Below are positions 7,589-7,626 of a stretch of 8,400 bases of DNA, piece after piece. Positions within the stretch are counted from its first letter, which is position 1, and every line of letters begins with the position of its first letter. Source of the DNA: a virus (taxonomy: Duplodnaviria; Heunggongvirae; Uroviricota; Caudoviricetes). Where the stretch lies: the IMG/VR virus record IMGVR_UViG_2778261349_000002, positions 1 through 8,400 of that record; one strand, written 5' to 3'. The notes beneath the pieces were generated by a model that was given only the letters and a program-made list of their open reading frames with translations, was not told the DNA's origin and made no database searches. The translations under genes and the position numbers were made by a program.

Positions 7589-7626
7589 GCCGGACACAAG
7601 CAAGCATCCGGCATGCTCTTTAACAA
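7589..7626 (+). promoter_or_regulatory. Hairpin followed by an rrn-type boxA motif; candidate antitermination (nut-like) site or weak terminator
   Basis: Stem gccgga / tccggc (7589..7594 / 7607..7612) with a 12-nt loop, then TGCTCTTTAACAA at 7614..7626, which matches the E. coli rrn boxA as recalled. Lies on the predicted PL-like transcript just after the YdaF-like gene. Confidence 0.4.

Follow-up and report, generated by a model that had tools for sequence, protein, structure and literature searches.

Untranslated transcripts are terminated by Rho, and prophage genes are silenced by the same factor. For early transcription in lambdoid phages, the textbook routes of antitermination are the N protein acting at nut sites and the put RNA of HK022. 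Antitermination at boxA independent of N is known for ribosomal RNA (rRNA) and for CRISPR arrays, whereas the boxA of suhB has a different, regulatory role. Large families of lambdoid prophages, the Qin/Rac-like and the CPS-53/SfIV-like, have no N gene. Here we analyzed a stretch of 8,400 nucleotides from a virus of the Caudoviricetes (IMG/VR record IMGVR_UViG_2778261349_000002, positions 1 to 8,400; hereafter the window), in which a boxA of the type found in ribosomal (rrn) operons stands directly after a hairpin on a predicted early-left, PL-like transcript. Sequence comparison places this boxA beyond chance in a conserved, portable cassette frame, of which it is the left boundary. Over its whole length, the window has 100% identity to a stretch of a Qin/Rac-like lambdoid prophage adjoining potC in Escherichia coli 00-3076 and other Shiga toxin-producing E. 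coli (STEC) strains. In open-access full text, neither this frame nor an rrn-type boxA on the early-left transcript of lambdoid prophages without N was found to be described, although older subscription literature could hold one, and a 2023 paper on the dicBF operon makes no mention of Rho or antitermination. The parts of the element and its frame in the window are as follows.

7589–7612, + strand: backbone hairpin GCCGGA-N12-TCCGGC, a 6-bp stem (7589–7594 with 7607–7612) in a boxB-like position 1 nt 5′ of boxA

7614–7626, + strand: boxA TGCTCTTTAACAA, an exact match to rrnB, where nascent early-left RNA is predicted to bind NusB/NusE

7625–7637, unstranded: left inverted repeat AATCTGGATATCC, whose first 2 nt are shared with the end of boxA

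7652–8167, − strand: cargo gene for a 171-aa protein of phrog_1244 (RefSeq coding sequence WP_000559918.1), antisense to the PL-like transcript

8192–8204: right inverted repeat GGATATCCAGATT

8182–8266, + strand (PL-sense): right end of the frame, a conserved structured RNA, from an alignment of 33 representatives, RNAalifold and pair counts

The antiterminator of the rrn leader (boxB-boxA-boxC, acting with NusB, NusE, NusA, NusG, SuhB and S4) is the described system that the element resembles in sequence. The 13-nt TGCTCTTTAACAA occurs once in the window with 0 mismatches, no second site is present at ≤2 mismatches, and the same site, on the + strand, is the sole match in the window to the consensus GYTCTTTAANA, which was derived from rrn, suhB and mutagenesis (PMC5725501). 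The leader of K-12 rrnB (L002, 316–329) has the same 13-mer plus the same following T, an identity of 14/14, which confirms the exact match that an earlier note on this DNA had proposed. About 2.5–2.7e-4 exact matches to the 13-mer are expected by chance on both strands of 8.4 kb, in agreement with the one in several thousand estimated there. The hairpin-then-boxA order of rrn leaders, claimed in the same note, was also borne out: the rrnB leader reads GCCGC-N14-GCGGC-AC-TGCTCTTTAACAAT, with the boxB hairpin 2 nt from boxA, and the window reads GCCGGA-N12-TCCGGC-A-TGCTCTTTAACAAT, with a distance of 1 nt. Both therefore share a large-loop hairpin 1–2 nt upstream of an identical 14-nt boxA; as in rrn operons, moreover, no phage protein would be needed here, and long untranslated RNA follows. 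A helix flanking the enclosed segment of ~560 nt could form here, loosely as the 16S leader-trailer helix does. Unlike the rrn leader, however, the window has no boxC at the rrn spacing (~30 nt) and no rRNA afterwards, its place being taken by GT-rich GTTGTTGGGG repeats ~560 nt downstream; what is enclosed is RNA antisense to a protein gene, and the helix would be 13 bp.

Folded locally, the hairpin at 7589–7612 has a free energy of −10.8 kcal/mol and leaves boxA unpaired. Among relatives the loop of this Qin-type hairpin varies while its stem is near-invariant, and most of the stem variants (TCCGGT, TTCGGC) would still allow G.U pairing on the + strand. Such a near-invariant stem neither backs nor opposes a structure, and the G.U-compatible variants hint at the + strand. 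A 145-codon + strand open reading frame (ORF; 7613–8050), whose ATG overlaps boxA, runs antisense to the real cargo gene; it is probably spurious, as its start codon is not kept in other frames.

Other described boxA systems share part of this arrangement. Nus complexes that have loaded at boxA prevent Rho from acting on rRNA and long untranslated CRISPR arrays, as previous work showed (Stringer et al. 2020, PMC7665894). The logic proposed here is the same, namely a long untranslated transcript shielded from Rho. Similar to the boxA elements of CRISPR arrays and of the suhB 5′ untranslated region (Baniulyte et al. 2017, PMC5725501), the present one is a stand-alone, non-rRNA boxA matching GYTCTTTAANA, but it lies in a temperate-phage early operon, within a mobile frame that also has inverted repeats and, on its 3′ side, a structured element. 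Like lambda nutL, it lies on an early-left transcript, and like lambda-type nut sites in general it has a boxA, predicted here to recruit NusB/NusE, as the earlier note had suggested in calling it possibly nut-like. That part stands, since conservation indicates selection for NusB/NusE, but a lambda-type nut it is not: the hairpin lies 5′ of boxA, with a variable 12-nt loop that lacks a GNRA-like pentaloop, no N gene is annotated, and the lambda boxA is CGCTCTTA, whereas the high-affinity rrn form is present here. The put system of HK022 likewise provides early antitermination in an N-less lambdoid phage, and the frame also has a conserved PL-sense structured RNA; put works without Nus factors, however, which a boxA implies, and the HK022 region fetched has no match to the boxA consensus.

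In order, the frame comprises hairpin, boxA, 13-nt inverted repeat, minus-strand cargo, inverted repeat and conserved structured RNA. Frames were ascertained by their right end alone, and boxA positions 1–11 played no part in selection; ~20 matches to TTGGGGATATCCAGATT were unrelated coding sequences and were dropped after an extended right-end check. In the 53 unique frames so obtained, boxA and the right repeat are 437–904 nt apart, and 49 of the 53 match GYTCTTTAANA. Positions 2–10 of boxA (GCTCTTTAA) are 94–100% conserved across these frames, whereas position 1 is free (T20, C17, A15, G1) and position 11, the N of the consensus, varies (C41, A11, T1). Variation is thus concentrated at the two positions left free by the consensus, which starts at position 2. 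In contrast, the upstream hairpins and the cargo past the repeat vary or are unrelated between frames. In 57 of 58 frames, the longest ORF of the cargo is a minus-strand one, antisense to the PL-like transcript. BoxA is kept beside at least four unrelated cargo families, behind two unrelated hairpins and in two N-less lambdoid backbones. The frame was found in at least 10 enterobacterial genera and in the viable phages PhiR49_1, SfIV, Kati and Klebsiella Kp4882-1, and right-end matches are present in 2,396 of 5,426 complete E. coli genomes, part of them covering only the backbone-proximal half, without the inverted repeat. This comparative evidence indicates that boxA is under selection for NusB/NusE binding. 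The main reason for accepting the motif as a working boxA is that its conservation reproduces the specificity of NusB/NusE, which would be expected neither of a recombination junction nor of a U-tract.

A scan of IMG/VR for exact matches to the 14-mer returned mostly unrelated chance matches and one rrn leader, together with boxA followed by TCTGGATA in CPS-53/e14/SfIV-like prophages and in T7-like early leaders upstream of gene 0.3. In the CPS-53-like class, the upstream hairpin (AAAAAAGCGCCC-N4-GGACGCTT) is unrelated to the Qin type and would be a good terminator for the minus-strand cargo gene; after it come boxA, AATCTGGATATCC, a minus-strand gene and the right repeat, in the same order as in the window. 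In PhiR49_1 and SfIV, a terminator closes cI, and beyond it operator-like repeats enclose the near-consensus promoter TTGACA-17-CATAAT. BoxA lies ~105 nt downstream of this strong PL-like promoter beside cI, after a hairpin, at the position equivalent to nutL, and no N gene is annotated in either phage. In every context examined, boxA is on the PL-sense strand. SfIV (L419, 2374–2580) also has, between boxA and its antisense gene, a small ORF on the + strand that is preceded by a good ribosome-binding site, a layout which implies that frames can hold sense-strand coding sequence as well. T7 itself carries CGCTCTTTAACAATCTGG at nt 812–829 (L284, 513–530), downstream of promoters A1–A3 and upstream of gene 0.3, a site not annotated in the T7 record; T7-like contigs (L043, L071, L076) carry TGCTCTTTAACAATCTGGATAA, in some with identity to the window over 21 nt. 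Unlike the boxA of the window, the T7 element lacks a cassette, a second repeat to pair with and a gene in antisense.

The link between boxA and cassette was compared in IMG/VR loci chosen by close relatives of the DUF1391 protein and DicB, independently of boxA, which gave 97 unique ydfA-to-dicB intervals; frames within them were recognized by the right-end signature and not by ORFs. On the + strand, GYTCTTTAANA was present in 18 of 19 frames and in none of the 78 cassette-less intervals, and on the − strand it was absent from every interval. The GCCGGA-N12-TCCGG hairpin occurs in most intervals, 400–1850 nt 3′ of ydfA and past variable sense genes such as ydfB and ydfC, and in most Qin-like relatives with or without a cassette. 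Wherever this hairpin stands directly before a real minus-strand gene (148, 171 or ~250 aa), boxA follows 1 nt after it, once with a single substitution. In the cassette-less intervals, including that of K-12 Qin, the hairpin is followed by ACTGACAGTTTACTGAAAGGATAT, and no boxA-like sequence was found at ≤2 mismatches. As the hairpin also occurs in cassette-less intervals and boxA only with the cassette, we assign the former to the phage backbone and the latter to the cassette. The earlier note had held that absence of the motif from related prophages would speak against it, and the outcome was divided: Rac and the relatives without a cassette, K-12 Qin among them, lack it, and essentially every cassette-bearing relative has it. 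The adjacency of an inverted repeat, also mentioned there, is real (a 2-nt overlap) but not incidental, being the key to the frame membership of the element. In K-12 Qin (L003, ~3131–3175) and in cassette-less IMG/VR loci (e.g., L129), the sequence after the hairpin contains ACTGACAGTTTACTGAAAGGATATTTCCCTGAAAAGTCAG, which loosely resembles a decayed boxA and repeat fused to the right end and is perhaps an "empty frame"; if so, boxA decays after loss of the cargo.

The predicted transcript on which boxA lies is defined by the following features upstream of it.

6199–6660, + strand: helix-turn-helix (HTH) repressor gene, from the RefSeq record identical to the window

6629–7108, + strand: relB and relE

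7178–7207, + strand: PL-like (dicB-operon-type) promoter candidate TTGACT-18 nt-TAAACT, predicted by promoter scan

7386–7538, + strand: DUF1391 (YdfA/YdaF-like) gene, from RefSeq annotation of the identical record and tblastn; the last translated + strand ORF before boxA

Transcription from the promoter candidate is predicted to start at ~7214, and boxA lies ~400 nt downstream, past the ydfA-like ORF, whose gene ends 51 nt upstream of the hairpin-boxA element. The promoter scan also found a PR-like twin site (5768–5739, −) before the cro-like gene, with the same hexamers TTGACT and TAAACT and a similar spacer, and the two are probably PL- and PR-type promoters with shared operators. The leader 3′ of the promoter candidate is homologous to the racR-ydfA intergenic region of O157. 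Beyond the window, the + strand of the identical RefSeq record continues with dicB, a DUF1482 gene, exo, xis and int. Because the cro-like, ydaT-like and replication genes of that record face the other way, the + strand is the early-left, PL-like (dicB-operon) direction. The predicted promoter and this gene order support the placing of boxA on a PL-like transcript in the earlier note, and no N-like gene is annotated in the prophage. The next + strand gene after the ydfA-like stop at 7538 is dicB, starting 1,157 nt on, and since the RNA in between is cargo antisense and the right end of the frame, ~1.1 kb of it is untranslated.

According to these observations, we propose with moderate confidence that the element is a functional Nus-loading boxA with an anti-Rho, anti-polarity role. 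It would load the host NusB-NusE(S10)/NusA/NusG/SuhB complex on RNA polymerase transcribing the PL-like, dicB-type operon, with no phage N involved. The ~1.1 kb of untranslated RNA between the ydfA-like gene and dicB would be a natural substrate for Rho, and the boxA-modified polymerase would resist Rho, such that the cassette is not polar on dicB, exo, xis and int. Antisense transcription would cross the cargo upon derepression of the prophage, and the cassette would bring its own anti-polarity device. Such a role explains why boxA is tied to the cassette and not to the backbone, is promoter-proximal and PL-sense, and is kept whatever the cargo. The conserved rrn-type boxA suggests that such prophages borrow the host ribosomal antitermination machinery directly, and its strict link to the cassette suggests a design rule, by which an accessory gene can be carried backwards without polarity if boxA comes along. 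As the frame occurs in viable phages, the anti-polarity idea is directly testable.

Several observations weigh against this proposal. The frames are related by descent and recombination, so that there are fewer independent observations than the counts of unique frames imply. The minimum free energy fold of a 121-nt context pairs part of boxA with 7551–7559, an alternative partner that is not kept in relatives. A strong rut site is not evident in the + strand RNA of 7627–8400, with 170 C against 165 G and a local C/G of only 1.3–1.6, and the promoter at 7178–7207 is only a consensus match, i.e., predicted. In CPS-53-like phages, boxA lies directly 3′ of a hairpin resembling a bidirectional terminator, and its T-richness could partly serve termination. 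Moreover, K-12 Rac has its antisense sieB directly after ydaF without boxA, and cassette-less relatives have ~500 nt of untranslated RNA before dicB without boxA; a boxA at this position is not indispensable.

A different explanation is that the conserved sequence is a mosaic junction, in which the cassette ends provide homology for exchange of cargo or are recent copies, the likeness to rrn is accidental and boxA has no function in RNA. The motif does overlap the inverted repeat, homology to cassette-less relatives stops precisely at the motif, the frame can be carried from one backbone to another, and many frames are close kin. However, a recombination site is not expected to vary only at consensus-free positions with GCTCTTTAA fixed, chance identity to the rrn 14-mer is ~1e-4 per window, and in T7-like phages the early leader has this boxA followed by TCTGG(A/T)A without any cassette; we therefore regard a junction as unlikely. 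It is less likely still that the element is a nut-like site for an unrecognized phage antiterminator, with the hairpin as boxB for a phage protein such as the small DUF1391 protein. A hairpin adjoins boxA in both backbones, the transcript is PL-like with boxA at the nutL-equivalent place in PhiR49_1 and SfIV, and the DUF1391 gene lies just upstream in the window; yet hairpin-then-boxA is the reverse of the lambda-type order, the 12-nt loop varies freely, the hairpins are unrelated between backbones, and annotation shows no N-like gene. The DUF1391 protein is no general partner, since its gene is missing between PL and boxA in CPS-53-like frames, and the hairpin of these frames is better explained as the terminator of the cargo gene itself.

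Termination was the other function suggested in the earlier note, in the form of a weak terminator closing the YdaF-like gene, and the same hairpin with its T-rich tail might also be a weak or bidirectional intrinsic terminator for the convergent cargo transcript. A GC-rich hairpin followed by UGCUCUUUAA has this appearance, and the CPS-53-like hairpin, flanked by an A-tract on one of its sides, would terminate transcription of the minus-strand cargo well. In the window, however, the terminator scan called nothing at the hairpin and boxA; the loop is 12 nt, and neither the + strand tail (AUGCUCUUUAAC) nor the − strand tail (GCGUGUGCACC) is a U-tract. In relatives, the same hairpin lies 400–1850 nt from ydfA and is followed by unrelated, non-T-rich sequence (ACTGACAG), and the conserved G2, C3, C5, A9 and A10 of boxA are not what a U-tract needs, so that the suggestion of a terminator was not supported and we consider it very improbable. 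An equally slight chance is given to a negative role as at suhB, by which bound Nus factors would hinder translation or nearby structure, thereby promote Rho termination and keep dicB, exo and int silent. Nus factors at boxA can promote Rho termination in some contexts (PMC5725501), and the ATG at 7613, which overlaps boxA, opens a frame of 145 codons; but this ATG is not conserved, position 1 of boxA being C, A or G in most frames, the 145-codon frame is the antisense of the real cargo gene, and most frames have no conserved + strand start codon within 50 nt.

Beyond boxA, the anti-polarity role proposed above could be part of a larger design. The rrn antitermination complex also helps the leader find the trailer. 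A portable rrn-like module is conceivable, albeit doubtful on the present evidence, in which a host-only Nus complex at boxA, a leader-trailer helix of the left and right inverted repeats (IR-L/IR-R) around the cargo antisense and a conserved, G.U-rich 3′ double hairpin plus pseudoknot make the cargo transcriptionally transparent in N-less lambdoid phages. Processing of the same RNA might release an antisense transcript by which the accessory gene is silenced in lytic growth of the phage. If true, it would be a third lambdoid early antitermination strategy beside N/nut and put. The module could serve the engineering of Rho-proof untranslated transcripts.

The 13-nt inverted repeats AATCTGGATATCC and GGATATCCAGATT flank the minus-strand gene and bracket unrelated cargo genes in many phages and prophages. 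On the + strand, departures of the arms from complementarity comprise 16 G.U and 5 A.C; pairing of the arms in PL-sense RNA is suggestive only, the G.U/A.C variants being non-independent. The core of the repeat, GGATATCC, is itself palindromic.

The structured RNA at the right end comprises two GUUGUUGGGG-containing hairpins (hairpin A at 8211–8236), followed by interleaved stems in which CCAC 8237–8240 pairs with GUGG 8251–8254 and GCCUG 8244–8248 with CAGGC 8262–8266, a pseudoknot-like arrangement of the H type according to RNAalifold and inspection. In the alignment of 33 representatives, 97.7% of cells form standard pairs, against 31–48% in slid controls, and in 7 pairs both partners change. 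A − strand reading lowers the paired share to 79.5%, and G.U cells number 156 vs. 6 A.C cells; the structure is thus specific to the + strand, and the module would work in the same PL-sense RNA as boxA. The sequence strikingly conserved across the frames is GTTGTTGGGG-ATATCCAGATT, ~12 nt, GTTGTTGGGGAAT, CCACC...GTGG and AAAAG(A)CAGGC. Two candidates for the right end were rejected. A put-like RNA was discarded because a right-end profile (nhmmer) had no match in the HK022 region fetched (24.5–37 kb, meant as the PL side, with no immunity genes annotated there) and because 8182–8266 has no Rfam match. An anti-GcvB small RNA like AgvB on the CA-rich minus strand, where CCCCAACAAC occurs twice, was discarded because AgvB-type genes lie downstream of PR′ and the structure favors the + strand.

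The cargo of the window is a 171-aa protein with a coiled-coil N-terminal part and a Cys-rich C-terminal part, assigned to phrog_1244 by a PHROGs match at 1e-57. The unrelated cargo families, at least four in number, are phrog_1244, phrog_6315 (a protein resembling those with two transmembrane segments), phrog_5286 and a 98-aa orphan. Cargo proteins of all families have no Pfam match and no clear PADLOC match, one family alone giving a marginal 2TM-effector match in PADLOC. Owing to the lack of a Pfam match for any cargo protein, identification of the cargo as SieB was rejected at the sequence level. The sieB of K-12 Rac (L397, 2060–2660) lies in antisense right after ydaF, with neither hairpin nor boxA, and its locus retains the frame's right end in diverged form (nhmmer, E = 6e-7). 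These comparisons suggest that the cargo genes are positional analogues of sieB, and the accessory cargo is probably superinfection-exclusion or defense-like, at the place of sieB in Rac.

As for the remaining features of the window, the relB/relE toxin-antitoxin pair sits between the repressor gene and the PL-like promoter and is absent in K-12 Qin and in the O157 relative; a hairpin resembling a bidirectional terminator (7128–7148) is located downstream of it. Beyond the window, DicF was absent from an Rfam scan of the downstream region (L001, 9500–11300), which gave only a sub-threshold STnc100 match over the start of dicB. An Rfam scan of the whole window at E ≤ 1 gave nothing at boxA or at the right end; its matches were a spurious snoRNA, a sub-threshold isrK-like match (528–609, −) and the sok antitoxin RNA (768–942, −; 113 bits), which lies beside a Hok/Gef gene.

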